From IMG/VR virus record IMGVR_UViG_2667527214_000001: DNA of 21,196 bases. One strand, written 5' to 3'. The stretch is from a virus. The notes under the pieces were generated by a model. It did not search any database. It was not told the DNA's origin and saw only the letters and a program-made list of their open reading frames with translations. Below, piece by piece: positions 1,095 to 21,196 of this stretch. Each line of letters opens with the position of its first letter. The first letter of the stretch is position 1. A program made the translations under genes and the position numbers.

Positions 1095-1146
1095 TCCCCC
1101 TGTTTTGACATTTCGAACTATCCGCTAAGTCGCATCGTTAGCGCTC

Positions 1147-1163
1147 GAGCAAACAGTTTGCTC
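1147..1163. promoter_or_regulatory. Perfect palindrome GAGCAAAC-A-GTTTGCTC near the att site
   Basis: 8-bp inverted repeat with 1-bp spacer, intergenic, about 50 bp inside the element end. Confidence 0.4.
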
Positions 1164-1261
1164 TCCGGCCCCTGCCGGAAACAACCGGGCAAAAATCCGA
1201 GTGATTCCCCCGAAATCAACCGGGTCGACGCCGTCCGGCGATTAGATCGAAGGAAATCGGG

Positions 1262-1702
1262 GTGGTTCGCGTGAGTACCTTCCAGTCACCATCCGATGGT
1301 GGACCTCTCGACTTCTTGACTGAACGCGACGGCGAGACGGAGTCGTGGGCTCGAGCGGATCCACGCGAGGCGCTGATCGAATCGTTCGGACGGTTCGGCT
1401 ACAAGGTGACGCTCAGAGACGGCGAGAGCGTCCACTACTGCGCGCTCGGGATCGAGGACGGCGAGTACATCGGGCGGTGCGACTGCAAGGGCTGGGAGTA
1501 TCACGACGGTCCGTGTGCCCATCTCTGCACACTCCGCAAAGCCGACTTCCTCGAGCTGATCGACGTGGCGTCGACCGACGGCAGTCCCGACGACGAACAC
1601 GAGATGCGACACGCGACCAACGAGGCGCTCGAGGGCGAACCCCACGACGGGGCGATCGAACGATCACGCGACTACGAGCGGGAGATGGAGGGTCGCGCAT
1701 GA
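1262..1702 (+). CDS. SWIM zinc-finger protein
   Basis: CDC-x9-CAH (RCDCKGWEYHDGPCAHLCTL) fits the SWIM CxC...CxH signature. Acidic composition; GTG start. Confidence 0.75.
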   Translation: MVRVSTFQSPSDGGPLDFLTERDGETESWARADPREALIESFGRFGYKVTLRDGESVHYCALGIEDGEYIGRCDCKGWEYHDGPCAHLCTLRKADFLELIDVASTDGSPDDEHEMRHATNEALEGEPHDGAIERSRDYEREMEGRA

Positions 1703-1823
1703 CGCGCACGCACACCCGCGCGATAGCCGCCTCCGTAGGCATCCCCACCCCCCTTGCATACGAACTGTACATCCCGACGCCGTCTGCGTATTCACGGGAT
1801 ATGCAAATCGGGGTGAACCACTG

Positions 1824-2285
1824 ATGGGACGGATGGATCACGACCCCTCGAGCCGCGTCTCGTTCGGCTGTCCCGACGAGTTGCTCGAGACGCTCGACGA
1901 GATCGCCGACCGCGAGGACATGAACCGAAGCGAGAAGCTTCGCGAGCTGGTCCAGAAAGAAGTCGAGGCGAAGGGGGATCTCGACGCGCCCCAGCCGGTC
2001 CTTCCCGACGACGAACGACTCGCCGAGGCGTACCGCATCCTCCACGAGCGGGCGTCGGCTCCGCACAAGGACAAGCGCCGCGTCAAACTCGAGATGGCCA
2101 AGAACAAGCTCTACGACAACACCACACCCAAGAGCGCCGTCCTCGACGAGATCATCAAGCCCCTCGAAAGTGAGGGATACGTCTCGGTGTGGGCGGGGAA
2201 CCAGCACGTCTGGGTGATCGTCCCGCCGATGCGCTACACCGACGGTGAGGATACCGTCGAACCGGGCGAAAAAGCAGTCGCGTAA
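1824..2285 (+). CDS. CopG/ribbon-helix-helix N-terminal domain protein with probable C-terminal winged-helix domain
   Basis: RVSFGCPDELLETLDEIADREDMNRSEKLRELV is a classic RHH pattern. The C-terminal half (helix, then IIKPLESEGYVSV..HVWV) resembles a wHTH. Confidence 0.75.
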   Translation: MGRMDHDPSSRVSFGCPDELLETLDEIADREDMNRSEKLRELVQKEVEAKGDLDAPQPVLPDDERLAEAYRILHERASAPHKDKRRVKLEMAKNKLYDNTTPKSAVLDEIIKPLESEGYVSVWAGNQHVWVIVPPMRYTDGEDTVEPGEKAVA

Positions 2286-2320: not shown

Positions 2321-3001
2321 TTACCGAAGCGAGCCGCCCATTTCAGTCCCTGGCCCGGCGTACAGCCCGGTCAACTTGCGCGGCTCGAAGACGAGAACGA
2401 CATCGTTCTCGGAGGGACCGATCTCCACGTCGACCGGCGTGTACCAGGTATAGTCGACGCCCTCTCGTCCGGAGTTGGCGACGAGGACGAAGTCGTCGTA
2501 GTTCGAGCGGAGCGTATAGACGGTAAACGTCCCGTCGTCCGCGACCGGGCCGACCGTGGGGAGATCACCCATTGCCATGATGTACTTCGCGTCACCGAGG
2601 GGGTTTCCGTCCGTATCGATCGCGATGCCCCGCAGTGAGCGGAAATACGAGCCCGGAATGAGTGTGGTCTGCTCGAGGGAGACACCGAACGATGAACGTG
2701 TCTGTGGGGTCCGTCGGGCTACCCCTGCACCCAGTGGGTCAAAGGGAACTGACCGCCGAAGTGGCGTATTTTCCGCTCCAAGCCGTGCGGTCGTGGTGAA
2801 CCCTGTCGTTGGGTCTGTAGACAGCGGGACGGGCGATCGAGTCCGCTGTGCCGATGAGGCACGTCCGTCCCCCGCTCGAGAGTCGAACGCTACCGTCTGC
2901 CTGACCGGATCGTTCGACGGACTGAGACGGGAGATCGTCGTGAGCGGTGTCGTCGCTATGCCGCCGTTGTCCATCGCAGCAGCGGTGGTGAGCGTGACCA
3001 T
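2321..3001 (-). CDS. Putative virion vertex/spike-associated protein with C-terminal beta-sandwich (carboxypeptidase-regulatory-like pattern)
   Basis: Last gene of the minus-strand structural operon. LRGIAIDTDGNPLGDA...VADDGTFTV pattern. The N-terminal half is Thr/Ser/Arg/Pro-rich. Confidence 0.55.
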   Translation of the reverse strand: MVTLTTAAAMDNGGIATTPLTTISRLSPSNDPVRQTVAFDSRAGDGRASSAQRTRSPVPLSTDPTTGFTTTARLGAENTPLRRSVPFDPLGAGVARRTPQTRSSFGVSLEQTTLIPGSYFRSLRGIAIDTDGNPLGDAKYIMAMGDLPTVGPVADDGTFTVYTLRSNYDDFVLVANSGREGVDYTWYTPVDVEIGPSENDVVLVFEPRKLTGLYAGPGTEMGGSLR

Positions 3002-3003
3002 GG

Positions 3004-3999
3004 TTATTCGTTCCGTAGACCGGCGCTGACGACGTTATTGCGGCTTGCTCCCGACTGCTTGAAGACCTTGTAGCTCGTGCCGTCGTGAGTGAAATCGTCG
3101 CCGTGTGCGCCGCCCTCCTGGGCATCGTTTGGGACGGCCTCGTTGAGGTATGCGACGGGCACGCTTTGATTCGTGTTCTTGTAGACCGCCGGATAGCGGA
3201 AGAAGAACGTGTCGTCCTCGCTCGAGGGGTTGATGATTCCCCAGTCGGCTGCCTCGAGGGGCGCGGAACCGTGGCCGACTGCGTCCACGTCGAAGGTTCG
3301 GGATTGCGACCAGTAGGAATTGAATCCGTAGGCCACGCTGTGGCACCGGAACGAGGTTCGAGTCGCCGCGAGGAACGGGACGGATGGATCGTCGAAGAAT
3401 CGACTACCGAGGTAGTCGAAGACGGTCATACAGGCGATCCCGTTGTTGCCGTCGTTGTCGTTCCAGAGACCGATGTTGAATCCGTCGGCGTTCACGGACA
3501 TGATGTAGCTGACGCTCGTTCCCCGGAGTACGTCTCGATTCAGGGAATTCGAGCTGCCCCAGATACCGTACGTGGAACCGTTGTACCGGTCGTACGACTG
3601 GGTGACTACGTCGGTGTAGCTATCGCGAAGTTGGAAGCCGACGTTGTTCGTGAGGTCGTTCGCATCGGCGTTGCCGATGTTCGTGTCGCCGGCTGGGTAG
3701 TGTTCGGACGTATTCCAGTCCGACGAGTAGACGAGCCGAACGCCCGACACATCGTCGTTGTCGTGATTGTCGAATCGGGAATGGTGGAGGTACAACAGCA
3801 GGTAGGTCCCAGTGTTGGTGTCCTCGAGGACGCGGCCGTTGTTGTGCCACTCCGTTCCGTCTTCGTCGTCTGTCTTCCCAGTACCGTCGTTCTGGACGTA
3901 GCTGTCAGCGTCACTCCAGTTATCGAATCCTGTGAGTGCGCCGACGAGATCGTCGATGAACGTCGCGTAGTCTGCGGTCTTTTCTCCGATAGTAGTCAT
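3004..3999 (-). CDS. Putative spike/receptor-binding virion protein
   Basis: 331 aa, Asn/Asp/Thr/Tyr/Gly-rich, beta-strand-like, at the distal end of the structural operon. ATGA-coupled to the upstream gene. Function inferred from position only. Confidence 0.6.
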   Translation of the reverse strand: MTTIGEKTADYATFIDDLVGALTGFDNWSDADSYVQNDGTGKTDDEDGTEWHNNGRVLEDTNTGTYLLLYLHHSRFDNHDNDDVSGVRLVYSSDWNTSEHYPAGDTNIGNADANDLTNNVGFQLRDSYTDVVTQSYDRYNGSTYGIWGSSNSLNRDVLRGTSVSYIMSVNADGFNIGLWNDNDGNNGIACMTVFDYLGSRFFDDPSVPFLAATRTSFRCHSVAYGFNSYWSQSRTFDVDAVGHGSAPLEAADWGIINPSSEDDTFFFRYPAVYKNTNQSVPVAYLNEAVPNDAQEGGAHGDDFTHDGTSYKVFKQSGASRNNVVSAGLRNE

Positions 4000-4472
4000 T
4001 TGTTGGCTTTGACGATTACCTGCGTGTCGTTCGTGTCGTCGCTACGCTTCCGAATCCAAGCGCTCGAGGCACCGAGCCCGCCCGGCGGAGCTTCGTGGTA
4101 CGGAGCGTTGCCCGGCTCGAGCGGGATCTTGCGATAGTCGCCGTCCGAGCGGAACGCGACGTAAATCGGTTCGGTGAATCCCCAGATCGTCACAGAGGAG
4201 GCTGGGAACCCCCAGTTGAGCCGTTCCTCGTCGGTCGAGGTCACCGCGAGCGGGCTTTCCGTGACGAAGTACGCCGCCTCCTGGCTGTCGTCCGCTTCGG
4301 GGTTGAGCGCCTCGACCGCGTTCTCCCCCCGATGCTCGAGCAACAGTGCGAGTAGCAGCCGCTCAGTGTCGCTCTCGACGAGGTCTTCGCCCCACGACGA
4401 GGCTCCGACGCCGTAGTCCTCGAGGACGCGCTCGATCGGGCTGTTGGGGCCGACCGTCGAGGAGCCGATCAC
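3996..4472 (-). CDS. Hypothetical virion protein (158 aa; penton/vertex candidate)
   Basis: Start corrected to the GTG at 4472, which overlaps the upstream stop (GTGA). Acidic, with a beta-rich C-terminal half. Confidence 0.6.
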   Translation of the reverse strand: MIGSSTVGPNSPIERVLEDYGVGASSWGEDLVESDTERLLLALLLEHRGENAVEALNPEADDSQEAAYFVTESPLAVTSTDEERLNWGFPASSVTIWGFTEPIYVAFRSDGDYRKIPLEPGNAPYHEAPPGGLGASSAWIRKRSDDTNDTQVIVKANK

Positions 4473-4684
4473 GATGCATCCCCCTCCTGCTCGCCGCCGT
4501 CGGTCGCGACCGTCCGCACGTCGCGCCGGAGATCGCGCACGGCAGCCGTGTGTTCTTGGATCGCCTCGAGCCACTTGCTCCGCTCCTCGCGGCGTTGGTC
4601 GCGTTCTTTCAGGTAGAGGCGGTACATGAGCAGGAACGCGACGGTCGGGAAGCCGAAGTTGTTGAGCAAGGCGGTGGGTTCCAT
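4469..4684 (-). CDS. Small membrane protein, holin-like (YvrJ/BhlA-type topology)
   Basis: One N-terminal hydrophobic helix (NNFGFPTVAFLLMYRLY) followed by a charged coiled-coil; 71 aa. Confidence 0.6.
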   Translation of the reverse strand: MEPTALLNNFGFPTVAFLLMYRLYLKERDQRREERSKWLEAIQEHTAAVRDLRRDVRTVATDGGEQEGDAS

Positions 4685-4685
4685 T

Positions 4686-5390
4686 CTAGATCAGCCCTCC
4701 GGTGAGGTTGCCCACGGCGTCGCCGGCACCGTCGACGAGGTTGCCGCCGGCATCGGTCGCACCGTCGACAAGGTTCCCACCAGCGTCGGTCGCGCCGTCG
4801 ACGAGGTCGCCGCCGGCGTCGGCCGCGTCGTCACCGGCACCCATCAGACCGCCGAAGAGGTCGCCGCCGGCGTCGGTGACGCCGTCGAAGGTGTCGCCGA
4901 TCGTATCGCCGACACCGTCCGCGGAATCGGTCACGCCGTCCCACGTGTCACCAAGGACATCGCCACCGAAGTCGCTCGCGCCGTCCGCGAGGTCGGTCGC
5001 GCCGCCCCACACGTCGCCGATCGCGCCGCCGATCCCGCCGGCCGCGTCGGTCGAGCCGCCCCAGATGTCACCGACCGCGCCGCCGACACCGGCCGCGGCG
5101 TCGCCAGCTCCACCGGCAGCGTTGGTCGTCCCGCCGACTATGTTGCCGAGCGCGTCGCCGATCCCGTCGGCGGTCTGGCCGGGCCCGCGCATCATCTGCA
5201 TCCAGCGATAGACGACGTAGCCGACGATCGCGACACCGATGACCATCGCGATGTTGAAGCCCTTGCTGTCCTTGGCCGCGTCGCCGAGATTGTCGGCGAC
5301 ATCGCTCATCGCCTCTGCGGCGGGCTCGGCAGCGTCGCCGGCCTTGTCGGCCGCTTCACCGGCGGCCAGGGCCGCTGCAGGTCCCGGCAT
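4686..5390 (-). CDS. Gly/Ala/Asp-rich membrane-anchored virion protein with 11-residue repeats
   Basis: TM segment FNIAMVIGVAIVGYVVYRW; repeats DAGG(D/N)LVDGA(T/G); GGAGGTGA SD upstream. Confidence 0.8.
   Translation of the reverse strand: MPGPAAALAAGEAADKAGDAAEPAAEAMSDVADNLGDAAKDSKGFNIAMVIGVAIVGYVVYRWMQMMRGPGQTADGIGDALGNIVGGTTNAAGGAGDAAAGVGGAVGDIWGGSTDAAGGIGGAIGDVWGGATDLADGASDFGGDVLGDTWDGVTDSADGVGDTIGDTFDGVTDAGGDLFGGLMGAGDDAADAGGDLVDGATDAGGNLVDGATDAGGNLVDGAGDAVGNLTGGLI
4731..4829. repeat. 33-bp tandem repeat (3 imperfect copies) within the CDS
   Basis: GTCGAC(G/A)AGGT recurs at 4731, 4764 and 4797. Confidence 0.85.
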
Positions 5391-5449
5391 CTATCTCACC
5401 TCCCTGTCGATACCGTCGGTGGGGCCTGTGAGCCCCTGCGTGTGTGCGT

Positions 5450-5692
5450 TCATGATCGGATCGTGACGAACACCAGCAGCACCACCTGCAGCGCCAGCAG
5501 GGCGATCATGATGTCGTCCTGCGTCCACTGCGTGCCGTAGACGAGCCGCGCCGTCGGACTCTCCGGCGGCTGCTGGGATTGATTCTGATTCGCCGGGCTC
5601 GAGGTCGTGGTCGCGGTGGGTTCCGACGACGTTCCCGTCGCGGTGACCGCAAGCTCGCCGGGTTCGGTTCCTTCCGAAAGACCGCCCTGCAC
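5450..5692 (-). CDS. Small membrane protein (C-terminal TM helix), probable virion membrane component
   Basis: Thr/Ser/Gln-rich N-terminus and IMIALLALQVVLLVFVTI; directly downstream of the large MCP gene. Confidence 0.7.
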   Translation of the reverse strand: MQGGLSEGTEPGELAVTATGTSSEPTATTTSSPANQNQSQQPPESPTARLVYGTQWTQDDIMIALLALQVVLLVFVTIRS

Positions 5693-5698
5693 GGGAGA

Positions 5699-6436
5699 TC
5701 ACCCCGTGACTCCGATCATGTCCTGCTTGACGCGCGTCCCCAGCCCCTCGATGCGGGCCTCGGTCTGGAACCGCGGCAGCGAGAGCAGGGCGTTGTTCGC
5801 TCGAGGCGTCCCGTTGGCCCGTTCGGGGGCCTCGAACGCGACCTTGTACGGCGCGTCGACAGCGACCTGCAGGCGGAACTTGCGGGGGACGTACGGCTGC
5901 AGCGGCGTCCGATCGAAGCCGAACGTGATTTCCTGCTGGGCCTGATCGCGAGTGTGCAGAATCGCCGTCTGTGCCTCCTTGAGCGTCTGGTTGACCTTGC
6001 CGCCCGCGCCGGGTGCGGTCTTGCGGATCTCGACCGACGCCGGGTTGCGAGCGACGTAGAAGACGTCGAGGTCGGTGTCAGTCCCGCTCGACGTGTAGTC
6101 GAAGGCGTTGGCGTCGTAGTCGACGCTGTCGGGCTGGACGACCGCTCCATCCTCCCACAGCAGGAAGTCCTGGGTCGTCGGGCTCTCGATCAGGTTGTGG
6201 CCGAGTTCGAACGTCTCGGAGTTGTCGGCCGTCCCGTCGGTCGCGAAGTGTTCGTGTGCCGGAAGAACGAGCCGAAGCTCGCTGTCCGGGTCGTCCCGGA
6301 GCTGGAGCGCCCGCCCAGTCTCGATCTCCGCGACGACCGACTCCTCTCCCGGGGTTCCCGCTTGGGTGTTGAACTCACGGAGAGAGACGCTGCCAGGGAC
6401 CCAGTCGGCCGACTTGAGTTGCCTCTTGACCGACAT
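5699..6436 (-). CDS. Large major capsid protein (SH1 VP4 / P23-77 VP17-like, single jelly roll with turret)
   Basis: 245 aa, acidic, beta-rich, with PDSVDYDAN resembling the D.VDY.A segment of VP4-type MCPs as I recall it. Directly follows and overlaps the VP7-like gene, as in Halopanivirales. Confidence 0.75.
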   Translation of the reverse strand: MSVKRQLKSADWVPGSVSLREFNTQAGTPGEESVVAEIETGRALQLRDDPDSELRLVLPAHEHFATDGTADNSETFELGHNLIESPTTQDFLLWEDGAVVQPDSVDYDANAFDYTSSGTDTDLDVFYVARNPASVEIRKTAPGAGGKVNQTLKEAQTAILHTRDQAQQEITFGFDRTPLQPYVPRKFRLQVAVDAPYKVAFEAPERANGTPRANNALLSLPRFQTEARIEGLGTRVKQDMIGVTG

Positions 6437-6927
6437 TACTCGAGGTCCACCTCCGCCAGCGCCGACTCCTCGAAGTAGATCTCACTCTGCGAGTGGTCGA
6501 TCTGGGCCGACGACTCGACGAGGAGATACGCCTCGTCGATGTCGCGGACCTCGAGGCCGTTCCCCTTGAGGGCGTGCTTGATCGCGTCGACTTTCCGGTC
6601 GTCCTGCTGGTCCGAGACTGAGTTCTTGATGTAGCTCGCGATGGTCGACTTCGGATCAGAAACGACCTGAATCGACTCGTCGGTCGGTGCCTGGTACCCG
6701 ATCGCGACGCGGGTACTGGCCGGCATCGGATTCCCGTTCGTGTCGACGAACTTCCCGTAGATCGGGATGCCGGCCTTGTCGCCTACGTCGACGCGGTTGC
6801 GGAAGAGGACGCCGACGCCGTCTTTGGGGTTGATCGACAGCACCGGAGTGAGTTGGTCCGGCGTGTTCGTCTGCGTCTCGACATACTTGCTCGAGTCGCC
6901 GAGGGCGGCGTACAGTTGCAGACTCAT
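6436..6927 (-). CDS. Small major capsid protein (SH1 VP7 / P23-77 VP16-like single jelly roll)
   Basis: 163 aa. VLSINPKDG..., PIYGKFVDTNGNPMPASTRV matches the P..x.F.DSNG..L..STRV segment recalled from SH1-type VP7. Sits between a small membrane-protein gene and the larger MCP. Confidence 0.8.
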   Translation of the reverse strand: MSLQLYAALGDSSKYVETQTNTPDQLTPVLSINPKDGVGVLFRNRVDVGDKAGIPIYGKFVDTNGNPMPASTRVAIGYQAPTDESIQVVSDPKSTIASYIKNSVSDQQDDRKVDAIKHALKGNGLEVRDIDEAYLLVESSAQIDHSQSEIYFEESALAEVDLE

Positions 6928-7203
6928 CTACGCCAGCACCTCGTTGATCATGCCCTGAGCGTTGAAGCGCTCGGCAGCCTCGCGGACGGCGAATGCGCCC
7001 GATCCGAGGGTGAATGCTCGGTTGTTGACGACCATCTCGCCGACAGCCATCCCACCGATACCGAAGATTTCCGACGGGAGCATCGTCCCCGTCGCGGTGT
7101 CGACGAGGTACGGAACGAGGTAGCCGCCCGCGACGAAGCCGACATCCATCCACACGTCACTGTCAGTCAGGACCTCCGTGGCCTGATCGAATTGCATTGC
7201 CAT
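6928..7203 (-). CDS. Major membrane protein candidate (91 aa, two hydrophobic segments)
   Basis: DVGFVAGGYLVPYLVD and IFGIGGMAVGEMVV...FTLGSGAFAV. First gene after a TATA-like promoter; position matches the small membrane protein preceding MCPs in SH1/SNJ1-type viruses. Confidence 0.75.
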   Translation of the reverse strand: MAMQFDQATEVLTDSDVWMDVGFVAGGYLVPYLVDTATGTMLPSEIFGIGGMAVGEMVVNNRAFTLGSGAFAVREAAERFNAQGMINEVLA

Positions 7204-7231
7204 GCGACCCGACCAAACAGCCGAAAACAGG

Positions 7232-7237
7232 AATAAG
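7232..7237 (-). promoter_or_regulatory. TATA-like box (CTTATT) for a leaderless capsid-operon transcript
   Basis: Located 29-34 bp upstream of the ATG at 7203, the normal haloarchaeal spacing for leaderless mRNA. Confidence 0.55.
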
Positions 7238-7249
7238 AGCGCGTTAGAA

Positions 7250-7305
7250 CCGCAGTCAGCCGACGCGGACCGCAGCGGTTGCCCGCAGTTGCCCGCGGAC
7301 CGCCG
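7250..7305. repeat. Array of short direct repeats upstream of the capsid promoter
   Basis: CCGCAG at 7250, 7270 and 7283; CGCGGACCGC at 7264 and 7294; GTTGCCCGC at 7278 and 7288. Confidence 0.7.
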
Positions 7306-7482
7306 TCACGGCCGCGGCCGCTGTCGGCCACGATCGTCCTCGAGGTCCTGTTCGAAGTCCGCCATCAGGGCCCCAACGACATCGGCCCGCGAAAGTTCGT
7401 GACCGCGACGGTCCTCGAGGCGATCTTGAATCCGTTCGAACTGGTCGGCCTTGCTCCCGCGGAGCGTGATGTCGGTTCTCAT
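7306..7482 (-). CDS. Small ribbon-helix-helix-like regulator (58 aa; not in the ORF track)
   Basis: Translated by hand: MRTDITLRGSKADQFERIQDRLEDRRGHELSRADVVGALMADFEQDLEDDRGRQRPRP. Beta-strand, helix, SRADVV helix pattern; starts 6 bp after the ATPase stop. Confidence 0.7.
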   Translation of the reverse strand: MRTDITLRGSKADQFERIQDRLEDRRGHELSRADVVGALMADFEQDLEDDRGRQRPRP

Positions 7483-7488
7483 CGTGAG

Positions 7489-8277
7489 TTAGTCGTCGAA
7501 GGGGTGTTTGATCCGGACCCGGTCGCTCCCGTAGTGGGTACTCTCGAGCGTCCAATCGCGCGAGTCGATCCGCTGCAGCGTTGTATCGTCCGAGTAGATC
7601 CACTCGGAACCGATCGTGTTGCCCGCGTCGTCGCTGAACCGGCGAAGCGTGAGCGGTTCGCCGTCGACGAGGAGATCGTCGGGAAGCGTCCGCGGGCAGG
7701 TTTCGGCGTCGGCCTTGTGAACGTCGGCCGGGTACTCGACGATGCCGCGGACCTTGTCGAGGTCGTTGCCGGAGCCGAAGCCGCCGAGCATCGACGCCTG
7801 ACACTGTGAGGCGATGTCTTCGTCGAGTTTCGCGAACCGCTGAGTGACCCACCCGACGCCCATTCCGTCGCCGTGCCACGTCGTCGCGAGCGTGTCGAAA
7901 GCGTCCGGGTAGCCCTTCCCTTGCGGCGCGAGCCGGTGGGCCTCGTCCAACCCGAGGAACGTCCGTTCGTCCAGCTGGGCCAGCGCCTCGATCACCGTCG
8001 CGATCGTCTCGCGCCAGGCGTCGTCGGTCATCCCGTCGCGACCGAGCTGCAGGTTCCCGTTGTCCTCAAGGATCTGCCGCCACTCGGCCCGAGACAGGTT
8101 CTCCGTGCCGGGTCGGACCGGGAGCCGCTGCAGGAGTCCCGACTCGACCAGCCCGGTGTACTCGTCCTTGTAGTCGACGAGAACCGTCCGGTCGTACTCC
8201 GGCGCGTTGCGCTCCGTGTACGCCTGTAGGCCGTAGCTTTTCCCCCAGTTCGTGCGGGCACCGAACGCGAGGTTCAT
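7489..8277 (-). CDS. Genome-packaging ATPase (FtsK/HerA superfamily, PRD1 P9/SH1-like)
   Basis: Walker A ARTNWGKS, Walker B FLGLDEAH, VTQR sensor motif; lies upstream of the MCP genes. Confidence 0.88.
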   Translation of the reverse strand: MNLAFGARTNWGKSYGLQAYTERNAPEYDRTVLVDYKDEYTGLVESGLLQRLPVRPGTENLSRAEWRQILEDNGNLQLGRDGMTDDAWRETIATVIEALAQLDERTFLGLDEAHRLAPQGKGYPDAFDTLATTWHGDGMGVGWVTQRFAKLDEDIASQCQASMLGGFGSGNDLDKVRGIVEYPADVHKADAETCPRTLPDDLLVDGEPLTLRRFSDDAGNTIGSEWIYSDDTTLQRIDSRDWTLESTHYGSDRVRIKHPFDD

Positions 8278-14414: not shown

Positions 14415-14900
14415 TCACCTTTGGATAGAGAATACGGGAGTTACAGCGTCCGCGAAATCAACCAGCCATGCAGCGAATTTTGAGAGGGGATTGGTCAGGT
14501 CCTCACGTTCTAATGCGTCCTGACGTGCCCTGTCGAGATTCCTACTACACTCGTGATGGCAATCATGGATGCGCTGCTTCTGTTCGAGTGTTAGCGGAGC
14601 TAAACCTTGATAGTCATCTCCCAACACCCACCGACGCATTGTATGGTCACTATTCTCATCAGGAAACCGCTCGTAGAGTTCCTTAAACTCCTGATGCAGA
14701 AAGTCTCTCTCTGACATACCTTCCTCATCTGGATTTATTGCCCCGAGTCGGCGAGCACTTAAATCTGAAAGGCGTTCGTATGAATATCGTTCTCTAAGTG
14801 TGCTTAGTCTCTCTTCCAAGAACTTCTCGTTATTAGATGGGTCCGGGTCGTCGGCAAAAGGTGGATCAGATTGATTTGTTTCTCTATTGTCCGTGCTCAT
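14415..14900 (-). CDS. Hypothetical acidic protein (cargo)
   Basis: 161 aa with halophilic composition; own TATA-like CTTATT (minus strand, 14925-14930) about 25-30 bp upstream. Confidence 0.7.
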   Translation of the reverse strand: MSTDNRETNQSDPPFADDPDPSNNEKFLEERLSTLRERYSYERLSDLSARRLGAINPDEEGMSERDFLHQEFKELYERFPDENSDHTMRRWVLGDDYQGLAPLTLEQKQRIHDCHHECSRNLDRARQDALEREDLTNPLSKFAAWLVDFADAVTPVFSIQR

Positions 14901-14987
14901 GACGCTTAATTGTCTGGAGAGCCGAATAAGTGCTTTGGGGGACTCCTTGGCTGATAAATATGTATCCGTAGTTACTGCGAGCGCTGT

Positions 14988-15013
14988 GTCCGAGAACTCC
15001 GGTAGAGTCGGAC
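14988..15013. repeat. Repeated site copy 3: GTCCG-AGAA-CTCCG-GTAG-AGT-CGGAC
   Basis: Same arms and spacing as copy 2, and shares CTGTGTCCGAGAA (13 bp) with it. The IR extends to TGTCCGA/TCGGACA. Confidence 0.8.
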
Positions 15014-15073
15014 AGAATCACCCCGATCTCCCCCTCGAGGACCACCGAAAGAACTAGATTGCTGGCGGTTTTT

Positions 15074-15097
15074 GTCCGGAATGCAGGCAACCCGGAC
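15074..15097. promoter_or_regulatory. Inverted repeat GTCCGG-N12-CCGGAC immediately before the short recombinase ATG
   Basis: Same GTCCG/CGGAC arms as the repeated sites but 2 bp closer; ends 2 bp before the ATG at 15100. Confidence 0.55.
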
Positions 15098-15099
15098 GC

Positions 15100-15687
15100 A
15101 TGAATCTCCAACAGCACGAGAACCGCGACGACATGAAGGTCTGGCTCAGCCAGAACGAAGTAGAACAGTTGCTCGAGGTGGCCGACGATACCCAGCAGCG
15201 AATTGCATTCGCACTCGGAGCGCGATGCGGCCTCCGCTCACACGAAGTCCTCGACGTTGCGCCGGAGGATATCGTCGATACCGACGCCGGGACGATGCTC
15301 CGCGTCTGGCACGGGAAGGGCGACAAGTTCCGAGAGACGCCGGTCCCGCGAGATCTCGCGACGACGATCCGGACGGTCGACGACGTACGCGACGCACCGA
15401 CCAGCTCGTCGCTCGTCGAGATCACCAGTACGCGGTCACTCCGGCGGTGGGTCCGATCGGCTGCCGACCAGCTGTACGACGAGACGGGAGACGCTGGGTG
15501 GGACCATCTCGGCTTCCACGATCTCCGCCGGACCTGGGCGACCGCGCTCGCCTCCGACGACGTTGATCCGCTACTGGTCTGTGACTGGGGCGGATGGAAC
15601 GATCTCGAGACCTTCCTCGAGCATTATCGAGGAAGCTACAGCCCTGAAGCACAGCAGCGGGAGCGTGAGAAAGTTGGTTGGCTCTAA
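15100..15687 (+). CDS. Short tyrosine recombinase (catalytic domain only, 195 aa)
   Basis: CGLRSHE (R), HGKGDK (K), FHDLRRTWA (HxxR), GGW (W), EHY (Y). No N-terminal core-binding domain; unrelated in length and sequence to the two flanking integrases. Confidence 0.92.
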   Translation: MNLQQHENRDDMKVWLSQNEVEQLLEVADDTQQRIAFALGARCGLRSHEVLDVAPEDIVDTDAGTMLRVWHGKGDKFRETPVPRDLATTIRTVDDVRDAPTSSSLVEITSTRSLRRWVRSAADQLYDETGDAGWDHLGFHDLRRTWATALASDDVDPLLVCDWGGWNDLETFLEHYRGSYSPEAQQREREKVGWL

Positions 15688-15811
15688 GCTACCGCTCAAT
15701 ATATGTGCGGACTTAGCGTTGTTATTTCCGTTAGTGCCGGTGATTATGGTAATGGCATTCTGAAAACAGTTCGCATATTCACCCACCTATATCTACGATA
15801 ATGCACAACCA

Positions 15812-16594
15812 TCAAATATTTATCATCTCTTTGAGTCTATGAATCCATATTCTGATTTGATCTCTGATAGTAATTTCATGTCTATGAGCCGATAACGCCT
15901 CTGGAAATACATTCTTAGCCTCTTGTTCATCTGTAGCCATAAATTCCATGCCCGTTGGGTAGCCACTGTACCGGTCATTTTGGAGATCAATAGTTGCAGC
16001 AAATGGAGTGATTATTACAGTCTGTGATTCTCCAGTGAATTCTTGATATTCCACAACGAAGCAGAATTTAACTTCTTTAATACCATCTTGTTTCATTTCG
16101 TTAAAAGCCTCCAAGAGCCATTTCATGTCCCAGGTCTCGGAGTCTTCTGTTTCTCTAACTCCAATTTTAGGTTTGCAACTAAACTCTTCTTTTTCGCCTG
16201 GCTGTAATACAGAACCTTCTACTCCCTCTAGTCCATCTTGATTCAGATAAACACCGACTTCAGAATACTTCTGTTTGTAGTCTTCTGGAACCGTAAAATA
16301 TGTTATCAACTTTAGATCCTTAGCAATACCATTTCCGTAATTGCTTAGGCTTATTTCACTCTCGATCGTATCAGAATCCTGTAGTTTACCAGATACAATT
16401 GCCTTATGATCTGCTGCTAAAAGTTCCTTCTGCTGGCCGTAAAGCCGATAGAGAAGGTAAGATATGATGACGGAAAATGAAGACAAAATCACCTCTGCCC
16501 AACCCGTAAGCCATTTTGGTGGTGAGGATAGTTGTAATGAAATAGCTAATAGATAATCCAACATATTGTATAGTAACGAATTCTGGCTACTCAC
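15812..16594 (-). CDS. Membrane-anchored hypothetical protein (cargo, AT-rich)
   Basis: TM helix WAEVILSSFSVIISYLLYRLY followed by an acidic beta-rich domain. The start codon is uncertain. Confidence 0.75.
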   Translation of the reverse strand: MSSQNSLLYNMLDYLLAISLQLSSPPKWLTGWAEVILSSFSVIISYLLYRLYGQQKELLAADHKAIVSGKLQDSDTIESEISLSNYGNGIAKDLKLITYFTVPEDYKQKYSEVGVYLNQDGLEGVEGSVLQPGEKEEFSCKPKIGVRETEDSETWDMKWLLEAFNEMKQDGIKEVKFCFVVEYQEFTGESQTVIITPFAATIDLQNDRYSGYPTGMEFMATDEQEAKNVFPEALSAHRHEITIRDQIRIWIHRLKEMINI

Positions 16595-16801
16595 CCTATC
16601 CTTTACGATATGGTTTCCCTTTTAGGCGACCACGACTAATTATGTGCGCATATTGAAAGAGTATATCTTCATTGTTCGGATGATAATAGATAGTCTGCGT
16701 TCAGTACACGGCTTCTAATAGCTATCGAGGAGGTGCATGACAACTTCCGGAAGGCCTTCGTCTGTACTTATTGCTGATAGTCGGTAGCCGAATGGGTATA
16801 A

Positions 16802-17092
16802 TTAGAGGAGACTATGAATCGTAGGCTGAGGAAGGTTCTCTACATCTAATTCTCCCTCGAGATACCTCTGACCTCTACCCGTGATCTCGTACATGTGATG
16901 ATCACTAAACACGGGTGTCACCAGACCAGCCTGTGTAAGCATCCTGCACCGCTCTTGAATCCTCCCTCGAGAAGCATTGAATCCCATAGCCTGTTCCATG
17001 TAGCGAGGGGTTGACCAAGAATCCTCTTCGAGGTACTCGAGGATTCGTTCATCGAGTGTACACATCCATCGAGCTGGTCTTCGGTCCGTCAC
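16802..17092 (-). CDS. phiH1-repressor-like winged-helix protein
   Basis: WMCTLDERILEYL...RCRML..AGLV...MYEITGRGQRYLEGELD; GTG start overlapping the upstream stop. Confidence 0.85.
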   Translation of the reverse strand: MTDRRPARWMCTLDERILEYLEEDSWSTPRYMEQAMGFNASRGRIQERCRMLTQAGLVTPVFSDHHMYEITGRGQRYLEGELDVENLPQPTIHSLL

Positions 17093-17400
17093 GATTCCGA
17101 GGTTTCACTCGCCGTAGGGCCGTCTCTCGAGCCGTTTCCGTTAAGGTAGACTCCGTTTTCAGCGTCGTACTCCTCATCAAGATAGGCCTCTCCTCGATCA
17201 GTGATGATATATACGCCATTTCCGAGCGGAGTCAGTAATCCGTTTTCGGCGAGCTTCTTACAGCGTCGTGAGACAGAAGAATGAGAAATCCTGAGACCCT
17301 CTTCTTCGGCAAGTTCACCGACTGGTTTTGCGCCTTCCTTTCGTAGAGTCTCGAGAATACGATCGTCCCAGATCGTCATCCACGTTCCCGACTTCCTCAT
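17089..17400 (-). CDS. phiH1-repressor-like winged-helix protein
   Basis: MR.S.TWMTIWDDRILETL...VSRRCKKLAENGLL...GVYIITDRGEAYLDEEYD. Start corrected to the ATG at 17400. Confidence 0.88.
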   Translation of the reverse strand: MRKSGTWMTIWDDRILETLRKEGAKPVGELAEEEGLRISHSSVSRRCKKLAENGLLTPLGNGVYIITDRGEAYLDEEYDAENGVYLNGNGSRDGPTASETSES

Positions 17401-17516
17401 TACTGCCCACTTCAGAACACACAAACCTATTCCTACGGTTTTCCCCACTCCATAGAACTATGACCTACTTTAGTCAGTCGTTGCATTTATGCAGAGTGAG
17501 CCTATACACAGAAACA

Positions 17517-17600
17517 CGGAGCTACCAACTTGGCTGAAGATGACTCTTGTTGGTATGTGAGACCGGGCGGCGCTGGCACGCCGCCCAGAAGGTAGCTCCG
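17517..17600 (+). promoter_or_regulatory. Structured 5' leader of the rightward operon
   Basis: CGGAGCTACC/GGTAGCTCCG (17517-26/17591-600) encloses GGGCGGCG-CTGGCA-CGCCGCCC (17565-86). Alternative pairing TACCAAC/GTTGGTA (17523-29/17549-55). TTTAT box at 17486-17490. Confidence 0.65.
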
Positions 17601-17609
17601 GAATCCACA

Positions 17610-17981
17610 ATGAATTGCGGAACTCTCGTGGGGCGTGTACCCCACGCACGGCAAGAGGCATCGCCATCCAAAAGGTCTGACGCTCGGTGCGCCTGCGGCG
17701 CTCGAGCGGACGGCTACGACGCGGGCAGCGACGAACCGGCTTGTCGCTCTTGCGTGCCCTTCCGAGCTGACGGCGGCCCGACTGCGGGATCCCCCGAGGC
17801 GCGACGCCAAGCGGACGCGCTCGAGACGATCGCCAGCGAACTGCGGTATCAGAACGCGGTTCTCACCGAGGTCATCAACACCCTCGACGCGATCCACGGT
17901 GAGGGGATGCGGTCACTAACGGCGATTCACACGGCGATCGAGGACCACGAAGTGACTCGTCGCGAGCAGGAGGGGATCTAA
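17610..17981 (+). CDS. Hypothetical protein with CxC...CxxC Zn-binding motif and C-terminal coiled-coil
   Basis: RCACGA...ACRSC..RADGG, then ALETIASELRYQNAVL. Start set at ATG 17610, just after the leader hairpin, rather than TTG 17547. Confidence 0.65.
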   Translation: MNCGTLVGRVPHARQEASPSKRSDARCACGARADGYDAGSDEPACRSCVPFRADGGPTAGSPEARRQADALETIASELRYQNAVLTEVINTLDAIHGEGMRSLTAIHTAIEDHEVTRREQEGI

Positions 17982-17982
17982 G

Positions 17983-18228
17983 ATGGTCGACGACGCGCTC
18001 GTCGATGCGGTCGAATCGATCCCGGACGCTGATCCCGACAGCATCGCGCAGTACGACGACGATTGCGGTCACTTCGTAATCCACAGCGATGCTGACGAGC
18101 AAGACGTCGACGAGATCGACGCGGCCCTCGAGGACGCGGGCTACGAACGCGACGGGCATCTCCCCGTCCCCGACATGGTGCAGCAGAACTTCCGTCCGCT
18201 CGAGGACGGGGAGGGGGATGACGAATGA
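17983..18228 (+). CDS. Small acidic hypothetical protein
   Basis: 81 aa, strongly acidic, tightly packed in the operon. Confidence 0.8.
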   Translation: MVDDALVDAVESIPDADPDSIAQYDDDCGHFVIHSDADEQDVDEIDAALEDAGYERDGHLPVPDMVQQNFRPLEDGEGDDE

Positions 18229-18995
18229 GCGGGAACAGCCTCTATTCCTGCGAGACACCCAGCTGCGACGGGTGGAAAGAGGTCATCACGCCCGACGGCT
18301 ACGTCTGCGAGGACTGCGCGGCCGAACTCGAGCAGCAGTACGAGGCCGGGCCAGAGATAGCCACCGACGGCGGCGTCGCCGTCCCGGACGCGACGACGGT
18401 CGCCGACGAACTGCCGACGCCCGACGATCCCGGCACGATCCCACTCCCGCACTCGTTCCTGGTCACGGCGTCGGGCCCGGTGACTCGCGTCTCCGAGCGG
18501 AGCGATGCCACGATCGAGAAGCGACCGGTCACCGTTTCGGTCGAGTACCGCCTCGAGACGCTGGCGGAGTTCATCGACTTCTGGAAGCTCCGCGATCGCC
18601 GGCGCTGGAAGTCCGCCGCGGTCGAGACGCTGCTCGGAAACGAAGACCTCGAGACGAGCTACGAACTCACTCGGAGCCACATCGAGGACTGGGATGTCGT
18701 CGCCGACGGCCGCGTCGAAGCGTTCGCCGGCCTCGGCCAATTGATGGTCGACTACGACGGGGCTCCGGACAGCACCGATCTCCCGAGGACGATCGTCGAT
18801 CGGCTCCACCTCGCCGGCGAGGATCACCGCGGCGTCGACGAGATCGTGATCGAGTTCGCGCGTGAACTCCGCCGGTCGGAGCTGTGGGGAACGGGCGTCG
18901 ACCTGGCGTACATCAACGCGAAACACGCCCAGCACGAGGATGTCGAGGACGACCTCGAGCGCGTTCTCGAGAACCTGCAGGAGGGATCGGCATGA
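18225..18995 (+). CDS. Hypothetical protein with N-terminal Zn finger
   Basis: CETPSC...VCEDC, then an ATDGG linker and an acidic domain; ATGA overlaps at both ends. Confidence 0.85.
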   Translation: MSGNSLYSCETPSCDGWKEVITPDGYVCEDCAAELEQQYEAGPEIATDGGVAVPDATTVADELPTPDDPGTIPLPHSFLVTASGPVTRVSERSDATIEKRPVTVSVEYRLETLAEFIDFWKLRDRRRWKSAAVETLLGNEDLETSYELTRSHIEDWDVVADGRVEAFAGLGQLMVDYDGAPDSTDLPRTIVDRLHLAGEDHRGVDEIVIEFARELRRSELWGTGVDLAYINAKHAQHEDVEDDLERVLENLQEGSA

Positions 18996-19201
18996 CGGTC
19001 GTACCCGAGACGGTGACCTGCAGGACCTGCGGTGAACCCGCGCGACGGGTCGCGTGGGGATCAGCGGATACGCCCTGCTACCGCTGTACCGAGTGTCACG
19101 CCGGCGGCCACATCGTCCACACCGAGGACGGTAGAGAACTCCGCCGAGGCGGTGTCTTCTGCCGGCTCAGTAACTACGCGACACGGAGGATCAGCGCATG
19201 A
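18992..19201 (+). CDS. Small Zn-ribbon protein (69 aa)
   Basis: CRTC...CTEC. Start corrected to the ATG at 18992 (ATGA overlap). Confidence 0.75.
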   Translation: MTVVPETVTCRTCGEPARRVAWGSADTPCYRCTECHAGGHIVHTEDGRELRRGGVFCRLSNYATRRISA

Positions 19202-19440
19202 GCGAGGACGACGCGATCTCGATCACGACTGAACTCACGCGCGGTACGTCGACCGACGATCGCGACAAGATCCGCGCGGAGGTCAGCGCCGAGACCGTCG
19301 ACGAACTCGATCACAAACTCGAGCGTGTTCGCCGGCAGCTCGAGGACTGGGCCGACGAGGTCCGGAACATCCAGCCGGAGAACTCTCGCAGTCGTCGGCT
19401 CGCTGACGATCAGTCTGAACTTGGGGAGGTCGAAGCATGA
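19198..19440 (+). CDS. Small hypothetical protein common in haloarchaeal viral/integrative elements
   Basis: ITTELTRGTSTDDRDKIRAEV...DEVRNIQP; ATGA-coupled on both sides. Confidence 0.8.
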   Translation: MSEDDAISITTELTRGTSTDDRDKIRAEVSAETVDELDHKLERVRRQLEDWADEVRNIQPENSRSRRLADDQSELGEVEA

Positions 19441-20186
19441 TTGGTGACTCCTTGAGCAGTGCTGAACGTACACGCGTCCTAAATCTGTACGCAGGAATTG
19501 GTGGCAATCGAAAGCTCTGGGACGATGTTGAAGTGACGGCCGTCGAGATCGACGACGAAGTCGCTGCCGAGTATCAGCGCCACTACCCAAAGGATGACGT
19601 GGTCGTTGCGGACGCTCACACGTTCCTGAAACAGCACTACGACGACGGTTGGGATTTCATCTGGGCGAGTCCACCGTGTCAGAGTCATTCGAGAGTTAGC
19701 TACGCGATGTGGCACTCCGATAAGGCACATAATCGGAATAGGTCGCCTGAATACCCCGATATGCGGCTCTATCAGGAGATTGTGTTCTTAGATAGGTTCT
19801 TCGACGGGGATTGGGTCGTTGAGAACGTTGAGCCGTACTACGACGAATTGATCCCCGGACAGAAGGTCGGGAGACATCTCTTCTGGTCCAACTATCATAT
19901 CCCGGATTTCGAGGAACCGGCGCGAGACTTCCCGTTTACAAGTGGGAATCCGTCTGACCGTGAAAAACTCGAGTCTTGGTTAGGGATCTCTACCTCCAAG
20001 AACATCTACCTCGGCACCTCAAACGATCCGACTCAGGTGCTGCGGAACGCAGTTCACCCTGAACTCGGGAGGCACGTCTTCGACTCGAGGACGGGTACCT
20101 ACGAACAACAGACGCTAGTTGCAGCGACGGATGATGGGAACGCGCGAACGCCACAGTCGAAGTCTGAACATGGGGGTGGCCAATGA
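19437..20186 (+). CDS. DNA (cytosine-5)-methyltransferase, compact viral type
   Basis: Motif I LYAGIGG, motif IV ASPPCQ (catalytic PC), motif VI VVENV, motif X-like LRNAVHP. Confidence 0.88.
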   Translation: MIGDSLSSAERTRVLNLYAGIGGNRKLWDDVEVTAVEIDDEVAAEYQRHYPKDDVVVADAHTFLKQHYDDGWDFIWASPPCQSHSRVSYAMWHSDKAHNRNRSPEYPDMRLYQEIVFLDRFFDGDWVVENVEPYYDELIPGQKVGRHLFWSNYHIPDFEEPARDFPFTSGNPSDREKLESWLGISTSKNIYLGTSNDPTQVLRNAVHPELGRHVFDSRTGTYEQQTLVAATDDGNARTPQSKSEHGGGQ

Positions 20187-21196
20187 GCGACGATCTCGCG
20201 CCGCTGTCACCCGAGGAAGGCGTCGAGCGATTCCTCCGTCATCGCGAGCCCAGCGTTCGGGAGTCGACGCTCCAGAACGCGCGGACGCGGCTCAACTACT
20301 TCCTCGAGTGGTGTGACGAGCGCGATATCGATAACCTGAACGACCTCTCTGGTCGCGACATCGCCGATTTCGTCGCGTGGCGACGCGGGGATATCGCCGC
20401 GATCACGCTACAGAAACAGCTCAGTAGCATTCGGGTCGCGCTCCGTTGGTGGGCCGATATCGAAGCCGTCGAGGAAGGGCTCGCTGAGAAGGTCCACGCG
20501 CCGGAGCTGCCGGACGGAGCCGAGTCGAAAGACGTGTTCCTCTCCGCGGATCGTGCGGAGCGGGCGCTGGCGTACTACAACCGGCACCAGTACGCGAGTC
20601 GCGAACACGCCTTGTTGGAACTCATGTGGGAGACAGGGATGCGCCGGAGCGCAGTTCACTCGCTCGACGTCGACGATCTCGAGCCAGACGAACACGCGGT
20701 TCGAGTCGAACACCGAATCGACGAGGGGACGAAACTCAAGAACGGCGAGGCCGGCGAGCGATGGGTCTATCTGGGCCCACAGACGTTCCAGGTCCTCGAG
20801 GACTACGTCGACAACCCCGACCGAAATGATGTGGTCGATGAGTACGGTCGCCGTCCGCTGTTCACGACTCGGAAAGATACCCGGCCGCAACCGGGCACGA
20901 TCTACAACTGGGTCATGCGGGCGTTGCACCCCTGTTCCTACGCCGAGTGTCCACACGATCGGACGCCGGAGAGCTGCGATGCTCGAGGGCGCAATGCATC
21001 GCTCAGCAAGTGTCCGTCGTCACGATCGCCGCACGCAGTCCGACGCGGTGCGATCACGCACCACCTGAACAACGATACCCCACCTGAGACGGTGGGTGAG
21101 CGAATGGATGTCTCGCTCGATGTTCTGTATCGTCACTACGATGCACGAACTGACAAGGAGAAAATGCAGGTCCGACGCAAGCACCTAAATCGGTGA
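20183..21196 (+). CDS. Tyrosine integrase (SNJ2-like family) of the provirus
   Basis: TGMRR, LKNG, PHAVRRG, HYD and the Cys/His cluster; paralog of 1-1023; ATGA-coupled to the methyltransferase. Confidence 0.94.
   Translation: MSDDLAPLSPEEGVERFLRHREPSVRESTLQNARTRLNYFLEWCDERDIDNLNDLSGRDIADFVAWRRGDIAAITLQKQLSSIRVALRWWADIEAVEEGLAEKVHAPELPDGAESKDVFLSADRAERALAYYNRHQYASREHALLELMWETGMRRSAVHSLDVDDLEPDEHAVRVEHRIDEGTKLKNGEAGERWVYLGPQTFQVLEDYVDNPDRNDVVDEYGRRPLFTTRKDTRPQPGTIYNWVMRALHPCSYAECPHDRTPESCDARGRNASLSKCPSSRSPHAVRRGAITHHLNNDTPPETVGERMDVSLDVLYRHYDARTDKEKMQVRRKHLNR

Follow-up and report, generated by a model that had tools for sequence, protein, structure and literature searches.

The window analysed here, a stretch of 21,196 nucleotides filed as IMG/VR virus record IMGVR_UViG_2667527214_000001, is located at G000:C1:431754-452949 in a haloarchaeal genome (3.98 Mb, GC 66%). 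Frame-specific GC content and the listing of open reading frames (ORFs) divided it into a leftward operon (2321-11115) with the genes of an icosahedral virion, a low-GC part (approximately 11.1-17.5 kb), and a rightward operon (17547-21196) ending in an SNJ2-type integrase gene. The question raised by this locus is whether the virion genes and the integration arm belong to one virus or to separate neighbours. An earlier note on this DNA had proposed a chimeric temperate virus, and the gene classes that it listed (major capsid proteins (MCPs), packaging ATPase, membrane proteins, repressors, zinc fingers, methyltransferase and integrase) were all present where it had placed them. Our analysis indicated that positions 1080-21257 on the window scale (numbering continued beyond the window ends), hereafter element B, very probably form one integrated simulovirus provirus. 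The provirus, which looks complete, would be that of a tailless archaeal virus with a membrane, Yingchengvirus-like and nearest to HJIV1, with its plasmid-type persistence module replaced by a pleolipovirus-type lysogeny module.

Integration at a tRNA-Ala gene

Three tyrosine recombinase genes were found in the window (1-1023, 15100-15687 and 20183-21196). The boundaries of the element were given by a 15-nt attachment (att) core, ATCCCGGCGAGTCCA, which is the last 15 nt of a tRNA-Ala(CGC) gene 17.6 kb left of the window (core at window-scale -17578) and is repeated exactly at 1080-1094 and 21243-21257. The shared core that the earlier note had expected behind the integrase was thus present. 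The true right end of element B lies 61 nt beyond the window end, and the start proposed earlier, 1095, is the base right after an att core copy. The whole 3.98-Mb genome contained four exact copies of ATCCCGGCGAGTCCA, all at the 3' ends of tRNA-Ala genes or just downstream of SNJ2-type integrase genes; the fourth forms the 3' end of tRNA-Ala(GGC), beside a third integrase paralogue. No tRNA gene was found inside the window, and an Rfam gathering scan of the window returned no family.

Along the chromosome, within a 3.47-Mb contig, tRNA-Ala is followed by element A (an SNJ2-like pleolipovirus provirus), an att core, element B and another att core. Element B accordingly stands in tandem behind a pleolipovirus provirus with the same core and an integrase (1-1023) of 70% amino acid identity to its own. 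Element B measures 20,178 bp from core to core, and A and B together 38.8 kb. In the two nearest genomes, G079 and G082, the site was empty, the chromosomal flanks being 4 kb apart as against 41.7 kb here. The tRNA core of G079 is directly followed by a homologue of window-scale 21243-21431 and then by a small remnant like 10675-11403, as right of the att core here; therefore, the 38.8 kb of A and B represent insertions exactly at the core. Because of the att copies and the empty site, past integration can be inferred; site-specific recombination at the 15-nt core evidently placed the integrase-linked unit in the 3' end of tRNA-Ala(CGC).

The integrase of element B agreed with the SNJ2 type, which is defined by the residues R...K...HxxR...Y, by Gly/Ala in place of Glu/Asp-I and Ala/Val in place of His/Trp-III, and by an att core outside int, at a fixed short distance downstream, that overlaps a tRNA gene (48 bp in subgroup I) (Wang et al. 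2018). The pentad R154, K186, H284, R287 and Y319 aligned with R165, K199, H295, R298 and Y330 of SNJ2, while A157 and V310 occupied the Glu/Asp-I and His/Trp-III positions (A161 and V314 in the upstream integrase). The cores, identical with the tRNA-Ala(CGC) 3' end, lie 46 nt past the stop codon of this integrase gene and 56 nt past that of the upstream one. The protein showed identities of 43% with SNJ2 Int, 66% with its counterpart in the pleolipovirus Harhisp1 and 69% with the Int of the provirus in genome G012. The attP annotated in Harhisp1, reported as an active provirus, includes CCCGGCGAGTCCA, a 13-nt core in common with element B, at a distance of 53 nt from the integrase gene. Among the 38 elements in the SNJ2-integrase paper, 33 were pleolipoviral, five were given as unknown and none was sphaerolipoviral (Wang et al. 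2018).

Among 152 genomes from the host family, 26 encoded the large MCP. Nine of ten chromosomal capsid loci had an SNJ2-type integrase gene on the like side and at a like distance, and eight kept the full order of SWIM-RHH genes, virion operon, AbrB-like gene, variable region with a 195-amino-acid recombinase, two winged helix-turn-helix (wHTH) genes and integrase. These eight relatives, of 20.6-25.6 kb, were bounded by their own direct repeats of 13-23 nt, at tRNA-Ala(GGC) in seven cases and at tRNA-Ala(CGC) in one (G012). The pattern was repeated in eight further loci, a tandem pair in G031 among them, and in all in 18 of the 28 capsid-gene loci examined in the family. The ratio of nonsynonymous to synonymous substitution rates (dN/dS) between element B and its relatives ranged from 0.03 to 0.24 (capsid, ATPase, SWIM, RHH, AbrB-like and short-recombinase genes). 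As gene order, att bounds and dN/dS agree in the relatives, the two arms evidently travel and are selected as one genome, as the earlier note had supposed; judged by these comparisons, many Natrialbaceae genomes have kept the entire gene order of about 20 kb as one unit under selection. IMG/VR also holds two 20.6-kb 'provirus' records with a capsid gene and an integrase.

Genome G031 contains two integrase-bearing simulovirus-like proviruses in tandem, 22.3 kb apart, beside tRNA-Ala(GGC) (G031:C1:894459-937433, L078/L079). Genome G096 carries an 18,925-bp contig with NVIV1 ORF19 at 100% amino acid identity, representing an NVIV1-like episome (G096:C3, L085). One of the 18 loci, a relative of 21.6 kb with an integrase gene, is integrated at tRNA-Ala(GGC) in that genome (G096:C1:2815336-2849335, L039/L040). 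Since both are found in this genome, episomal and integrated simuloviruses co-reside.

Virion module and phylogenetic position

The virion module (2321-11115, minus strand) is one leftward operon of 17 genes, in which neighbours abut or overlap by 1-4 nt. All 17 ORFs were intact, and at least four encode a predicted transmembrane (TM) helix. By tblastn, 17 ORFs of the window matched HJIV1 collinearly (16 of the 17 virion-operon genes and the SWIM gene), and megablast gave 89% nucleotide identity across 2325-10033. The replication and regulation part, SWIM excepted, was not common with HJIV1. The HJIV1 record BK013338 has frameshifts in two of the genes of 8274-11115, all of which were intact in element B.

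The capsid proteins had no match in Pfam or PHROG, and phmmer against the PDB gave only weak matches; their identity was therefore taken from homology to HJIV1 and SNJ1 and from their folds. The large MCP was 94.7, 83 and 40% identical to its counterparts in HJIV1, NVIV1 and SNJ1 (PB2), and the small MCP 92, 83 and 38% (PB7 in SNJ1), with weak phmmer matches of the latter to SH1 ORF24 and HHIV-2 VP7. AlphaFold2 (AF2) models were built from alignments of 20-22 relatives. For the large MCP (pLDDT 78), the top seven Foldseek matches in the PDB were 3zn6_A/3zmn (VP17), 6h82_A, 6h9c_A and 6qt9_C/A, with E values of 2e-10 to 1e-7; for the small MCP (pLDDT 88), the top matches were 6h9c_K/D/I, 3zn5, 6h82_E and 6qt9_h, with TM-scores of about 0.7 and E values of about 1e-8. 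Top matches of both models were only capsid chains of P23-77 (VP17/VP16), HHIV-2, HCIV-1 and SH1 (E 1e-10 to 1e-7, TM-score 0.57-0.73). Both proteins are thus predicted to adopt the single-jelly-roll capsid fold, in agreement with the earlier proposal.

The packaging ATPase was 97.7% identical to that of HJIV1, 94% to NVIV1, 35% to SNJ1 and 26-27% to HHIV-2, PH1 and HCIV-1, with dN/dS of 0.06-0.09. The virion module, previously described as SNJ1/SH1-type, is consequently SNJ1-type (Simuloviridae) but not SH1-type. In a concatenated ATPase and MCP tree (quick search, midpoint root), element B was sister to the episomal HJIV1 (SH-aLRT support 96), NVIV1 fell among integrated forms and SNJ1 was the outgroup. 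Episomal and integrated forms were interleaved on this tree, corresponding to at least three changes of lifestyle. The core nests in Yingchengvirus between NVIV1 and HJIV1, so that the tree indicates no new genus, contrary to the unnamed genus suggested before. The term chimeric was apt, as the capsid and ATPase core has HJIV1, an episome with RepA, for its sister and the persistence arm is pleolipovirus-like. On a smaller scale, the distal genes (2321-4684) were 94-100% identical in amino acids to G079 and the capsid genes were nearer to HJIV1. This mosaicism points to module exchange between close relatives.

The profile issued by the virus taxonomy committee ICTV (2023) gives Simuloviridae 17-21 homologous collinear ORFs including the packaging ATPase, an extrachromosomal episome as the provirus, rolling-circle replication by HUH RepA, circular double-stranded DNA of 16-19 kb, a membrane inside the virion, and lysis upon induction. 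Element B has two MCPs matching Halopanivirales capsid chains alone and shares 17 collinear ORFs with HJIV1. It is chromosomal between att cores and has no HUH RepA by tblastn, Pfam or NCBIfam, a protein also missing from the accepted simulovirus NVIV1. The integrated, RepA-less form conflicts with the ICTV text, where every simulovirus is episomal and replicates by rolling circle: HJIV1, which stands for one of three named simulovirus species, has as its nearest relative a chromosomal, integrase-bearing and RepA-less element, as opposed to the plasmid-like picture.

Element B shares the collinear virion module and the SWIM gene with HJIV1, NVIV1 and SNJ1. These are circular episomes of 16.5-18.9 kb without integrase, SNJ1 and HJIV1 having a rolling-circle RepA and MazE-type regulators, whereas element B has the SNJ2-type integrase, PhiH1-like regulators, a second small recombinase, cargo slots and no RepA. 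With SNJ2, HHPV4, HRPV9 and Harhisp1 it shares the integrase signature, the att core approximately 50 nt downstream at a tRNA 3' end and divergent PhiH1/Orf4-like wHTH genes (and with Harhisp1 the CCCGGCGAGTCCA core). Their integrases, however, belong to budding, pleomorphic viruses whose replication operon, of the Rep-Arvir/ORF19 type, is re-formed on excision, while the module in element B serves icosahedral, lytic-type virion genes and no such Rep is present. The alphasphaerolipovirus-like HalaCibP1, HalaPauP1 and HaloLacP1 are likewise found in haloarchaeal chromosomes, their capsid and ATPase genes being flanked by an integrase on one side and a tRNA gene on the other, but are kin of the linear, protein-primed SH1 group, to which the ATPase here is about 26% identical.

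The kind is not new, SNJ1-like loci in the integrated state having been on record since 2010. HaloMukP1/P2 and IHP were described in a 2014 review as integrated loci with genes in common with SNJ1, and ViPRE-Hmuk1 as a 39.4-kb locus with pleolipovirus-like and SNJ1-like genes, extending from tRNA-Ala to a partial copy beside an integrase (Porter et al. 2013). These are chromosomal SNJ1-like capsid/ATPase loci of Halomicrobium and Haloarcula, that is, of another host family and, by the literature, only distantly related. In its methyltransferases, its regulators and its overall picture, ViPRE-Hmuk1 is, by the published descriptions, like the 38.8-kb tandem here; it was described as one mosaic locus and not as two att-bounded proviruses with their own integrases. 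The earlier reading of an integrating Halopanivirales member of about 20 kb stands in that element B is att-bounded and 20.2 kb long, with the qualification that such elements (HaloMukP1/P2, IHP and ViPRE-Hmuk1) had already been published. Our literature search gave no paper in which integrating simuloviruses are named as a lineage, and the older HaloMukP, IHP and ViPRE papers cover the kind. What is added here is the resolution into two tandem proviruses with one att core in common, the SNJ2-type signature, the conserved RepA-less architecture and the close tie to HJIV1.

Persistence module and alternative explanations

In the provirus proposed here, the lost part would be the rolling-circle RepA and MazE-type switch of SNJ1/HJIV1, and the acquired part two PhiH1/Orf4-like wHTH regulators facing the operon that ends in the integrase gene. 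The regulator at 17089-17448 was 54% identical to an HHPV4 protein annotated as 'PhiH1-like repressor' and 34% to the SNJ2 repressor Orf4; a wHTH regulator was 37-39% identical to its HRPV9 and Harhisp1 counterparts, and the regulators were kept in all relatives. The wHTH proteins would silence both the 17-gene virion operon and the integrase operon. Upon induction, Int would recombine the two cores to give a 20.2-kb circle, in which the SWIM and RHH genes would sit directly downstream of the integrase gene across attP and be read from the integrase operon. In SNJ2, a replication operon that begins within int and continues over attP is restored by excision. The SWIM protein was 36% identical to SNJ1 gp9 and HJIV1 ORF8, whose genes precede RepA, and the SWIM and RHH genes were 79-91% conserved in seven integrated relatives (dN/dS 0.07-0.19); by analogy, the two may be replication candidates. 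The virion operon would be controlled from 11116-11220, beside the AbrB-like gene, to produce a membrane-lined capsid of two single-jelly-roll proteins, into which the ATPase would package the DNA, and the AT-rich stretch round the small conserved recombinase would act as a swap-in region for cargo or defence genes.

Several points weigh against the integrated-simulovirus reading. No replication initiator was recognized, as homologues of SNJ1/HJIV1 RepA, NVIV1 ORF19, SNJ2 ORF19/DUF7845 and Orc1 were found neither in element B nor in its relatives, and searches with the RHH protein (RHH153), ORF256, ORF260 and others in Pfam, NCBIfam, PADLOC, PDB and Atlas gave nothing usable as an initiator. 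An SNJ1 ORF4-type switch was not found in element B, where the SNJ1 ORF4 and HJIV1 ORF1-4 regulators had no match. Clear homologues of the accessory proteins Orf2 and Orf3 were also missing, with only a 30-amino-acid Orf2-like stretch in ORF144; such homologues occur in only five of the 38 elements of Wang et al. (2018). At 20.2 kb, element B exceeds the 16-19 kb given for Simuloviridae, the packaging capacity being assumed. Decayed copies in the same genome show that such elements die in place, and excision, expression and particle formation of element B are predictions from its sequence.

An alternative is that element B is a real former provirus, now defective, which lost RepA and the SNJ1-type switch, is therefore no longer able to replicate or to make infectious particles, and persists as chromosomal cargo, possibly retained because it supplies defence genes or immunity to superinfection. 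The lack of a recognizable initiator, the decayed kin that this genome holds at tRNA-Ala(GGC) and at window-scale 21258-24000, and the defence-type genes in the cargo slots of relatives are in line with such a fate, which we nevertheless consider somewhat unlikely. All 17 virion ORFs are intact, as against two frameshifts in the database copy of HJIV1, and RepA was absent from all 18 integrase-linked loci, which are under strong purifying selection, as would fit a working RepA-less lifestyle better than decay in each locus separately. The accepted simulovirus NVIV1 has no RepA either, and G031 has a tandem duplicate integration.

Another possibility concerns the middle region. Homology with the relatives ends at 11403, returns at 14985-15687 and returns again at 16836, leaving two low-GC slots whose content differs in each relative; those of the relatives hold AspBHI/Mrr, HNH/EVE and C5-methyltransferase (C5-MTase) genes. 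Slot 1 here also holds small ORFs, two of them with TM helices, and the 260-amino-acid ORF of slot 2 had no match in Pfam, NCBIfam or PADLOC and no homologue in the relatives. The conserved block between the slots consists of the 195-amino-acid, catalytic-domain-only recombinase gene with a 115-nt leader, and stops exactly at the recombinase stop codon. Further copies of this recombinase (at least 95% identity) were found at C1:1132164-1132748 and C1:2780750-2781334. It could accordingly be envisaged that an integrating simulovirus of about 14 kb contains a nested, unpackaged mobile island (approximately 11.4-16.8 kb) exchanged by the recombinase. The exact breaks at 11403, 14985, 15687 and 16836, the island GC far under that of the host and the position of the further recombinase copies beside other low-GC DNA would agree with this composite, but we regard it as unlikely. 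The recombinase behaves as a vertically inherited core gene: five of the eight att-bounded relatives had 81-97% amino acid identity to it, the other three (G079, G076 and G012) 35-46%, and two loci beyond these 97%; its dN/dS was 0.03-0.05 at a dS (0.3-0.7) like that of its neighbours. Moreover, no island-flanking repeats were seen, and a slot region of 5.5-10.4 kb was kept in every att-bounded relative. For the same reasons of conservation and dN/dS, the recombinase, at first viewed with the low-GC region as a foreign insertion, was taken to be a core gene. The block 14985-15687 with its flanking slots may be a cassette-exchange site.

That the two arms are separate neighbours (capsid genes left stranded next to an integrative element of other origin, or a 'ViPRE' mosaic that is not mobile and was formed by local recombination) might be thought from the low-GC break between them, the second recombinase gene inside and the published ViPRE loci, first read as mixed collections, but is largely refuted and very improbable, because no att core lies between the arms, the empty site shows everything between the tRNA and 21243 to be inserted, and the SWIM/RHH and integrase ends move together between att repeats in eight other genomes at two tRNA-Ala genes.

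Element B as an integrated simulovirus does not overturn current views. It would mean that capsid modules move between the persistence modules of icosahedral and pleomorphic haloviruses, and that a published 'mosaic' locus type (ViPRE) resolves into two tandem proviruses with one att core in common. More speculatively, and with considerable doubt, it may belong to an active integrating simulovirus lineage that is commoner in Natrialbaceae than the episomal forms. Such a lineage might replicate without a known initiator, perhaps through an operon formed after excision from integrase, attP, SWIM and RHH as in SNJ2, while the recombinase would service two hypervariable defence-cargo slots. The host, being of a culturable type, offers a system for asking about replication and cross-excision of co-resident SNJ2-like and SNJ1-like proviruses.

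Gene inventory and neighbouring elements

The features of the window are collected below.

Table 1. Features of element B and its borders, in window-scale positions.
Feature	Position	Strand	Remarks
Integrase of element A	1-1023	+	upstream neighbour's, outside element B; Pfam Phage_integrase and SAM-like domains; SNJ2-type signature residues present
att core	1080-1094	+	closes element A on its right and element B on its left
SWIM zinc-finger gene	1262-1702	+	Pfam SWIM
RHH-domain gene	1824-2285	+	Pfam RHH_1
Distal virion genes	2321-5692	-	collinear tblastn matches to HJIV1, 54-97% identity; PHROG 'head protein', phrog_31620
VP1-like	2321-3001	-	33% identical to SNJ1 VP1
HJIV1 ORF28-like	3004-3999	-	
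HJIV1 ORF27-like	3996-4574	-	
SNJ1 VP7-like	4469-4684	-	67% identical to SNJ1 VP7
Repeat-rich ORF25-like	4686-5390	-	one TM helix
Small C-terminal-TM protein	5450-5692	-	
Large MCP	5699-6436	-	predicted single jelly-roll with tower (AF2, homology); equivalent of SH1 VP4, P23-77 VP17, SNJ1 PB2
Small MCP	6436-6927	-	predicted single jelly-roll (AF2, homology); equivalent of SH1 VP7, P23-77 VP16, SNJ1 PB7
VP6-like small structural protein	6928-7203	-	98% identical to HJIV1 ORF21
58-aa ORF	7306-7482	-	67% to HJIV1 gp25, 45% to SNJ1 gp24
Genome-packaging ATPase	7489-8277	-	phrog_2666; tblastn to HJIV1 'packaging ATPase'
Proximal virion genes	8274-11115	-	collinear tblastn matches to HJIV1, NVIV1, SNJ1
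VP5-like	8274 to ~8850	-	
VP4-position gene	8849-9388	-	TM helix
VP3-like	9385-10032	-	TM helix
VP2-like	10037 to ~10795	-	
gp17-like first operon gene	10792-11115	-	Pfam WDGH domain
Divergent control region	11116-11220		palindrome TAGTCTC-N8-GAGACTA beside TTTAAA, read from sequence
AbrB-like 65-aa gene	11221-11418	+	motif GGVVLPK..LRALGL typical of AbrB/SpoVT
Cargo slot 1	11404-14984		low-GC (0.43-0.55), variable
DUF3800 protein	11538-12296	+	Pfam; slot 1
GIY-YIG protein	12507-13376	-	Pfam; slot 1
Tyrosine recombinase, 195 aa	15100-15687	+	catalytic domain only; Pfam Phage_integrase E 1e-17; between cargo slots
Cargo slot 2	15688-16835		variable; ORF 15812-16594, 260 aa, familyless
Winged-helix regulators (two)	16802-17092, 17089-17448	-	PhiH1-like/SNJ2 Orf4-like; divergent from integrase operon; Pfam HTH_24, MarR
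Integrase operon, upstream part	17547-20186	+	six ORFs; start/stop overlaps of 4 nt
ORF144	17547-17981	+	30-aa stretch 60% identical to SNJ2 Orf2
ORF81	17983-18228	+	
ORF256	18225-18995	+	among relatives only in G079 and decayed third copy
CxxC zinc finger	18992-19201	+	region conserved in seven relatives
DUF7389 protein	19198-19440	+	among relatives only in G079 and decayed third copy
Short C5-MTase-like gene	19437-20186	+	249 aa; first ~80 residues alone match known enzymes
SNJ2-type tyrosine integrase	20183-21196	+	Pfam Phage_integrase and SAM-like domains
Right att core	21243-21257		outside window; G000:C1:452996-453010

The ORF at 11221-11418 was 79-89% conserved in seven relatives (dN/dS 0.07-0.12). 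It had no Pfam match and no BLAST match to SNJ1 ORF4, and its motif suggests an AbrB-like fold. The ORF at 4686-5390 contains degenerate 33-nt (11-amino-acid) repeats rich in Gly, Ala, Asp and Thr, with a weak PHROG tape-measure match, and its length and repeat content differ between relatives.

Element A is an 18.6-kb SNJ2-like betapleolipovirus provirus (window-scale -17563 to 1094; G000:C1:414190-432847, L005). Its identity to SNJ2 was 94.5% for orf2, 92% for orf22, 90% for orf18 and 79% for the NTPase, the range including orf9 and orf15 being 63-94%, and it also encodes a DUF7845 Rep-like protein. A tblastn search of its spike protein against phages gave no match. Excision would bring the methyltransferase, orf22-like and DUF7845 Rep-like genes, which sit at its far end, up to the integrase gene across attP, an arrangement already described for SNJ2. 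The C5-MTase-like gene was found only in elements A and B (82% identity; A copy at window-scale -17028 to -16285) and was absent from the arms of the relatives; it precedes the integrase gene in B and follows attP in A.

Right of element B, window-scale 21258-24000 (L006:1012-3750) holds an older simulovirus-like remnant, with a truncated gene like the first virion-operon gene and a control region. It includes a 528-bp repeat of 10876-11403, 88% identical, outside the right att core. This relic predates both proviruses, because it is common to G079. A third complete element from 21258 onward was considered and rejected, as the remnant is older and common to G079 and no further att copy was found right of 21257. 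A third, decayed element of the same kind (G000:C1:2231659-2242800) occupies tRNA-Ala(GGC), where seven of the relatives are integrated. Its virion module is gone, except for 118 bp of VP5; the integrase (46%) and genes of the arm (66-94%) survive, together with cargo of low GC and a homologue of the recombinase.

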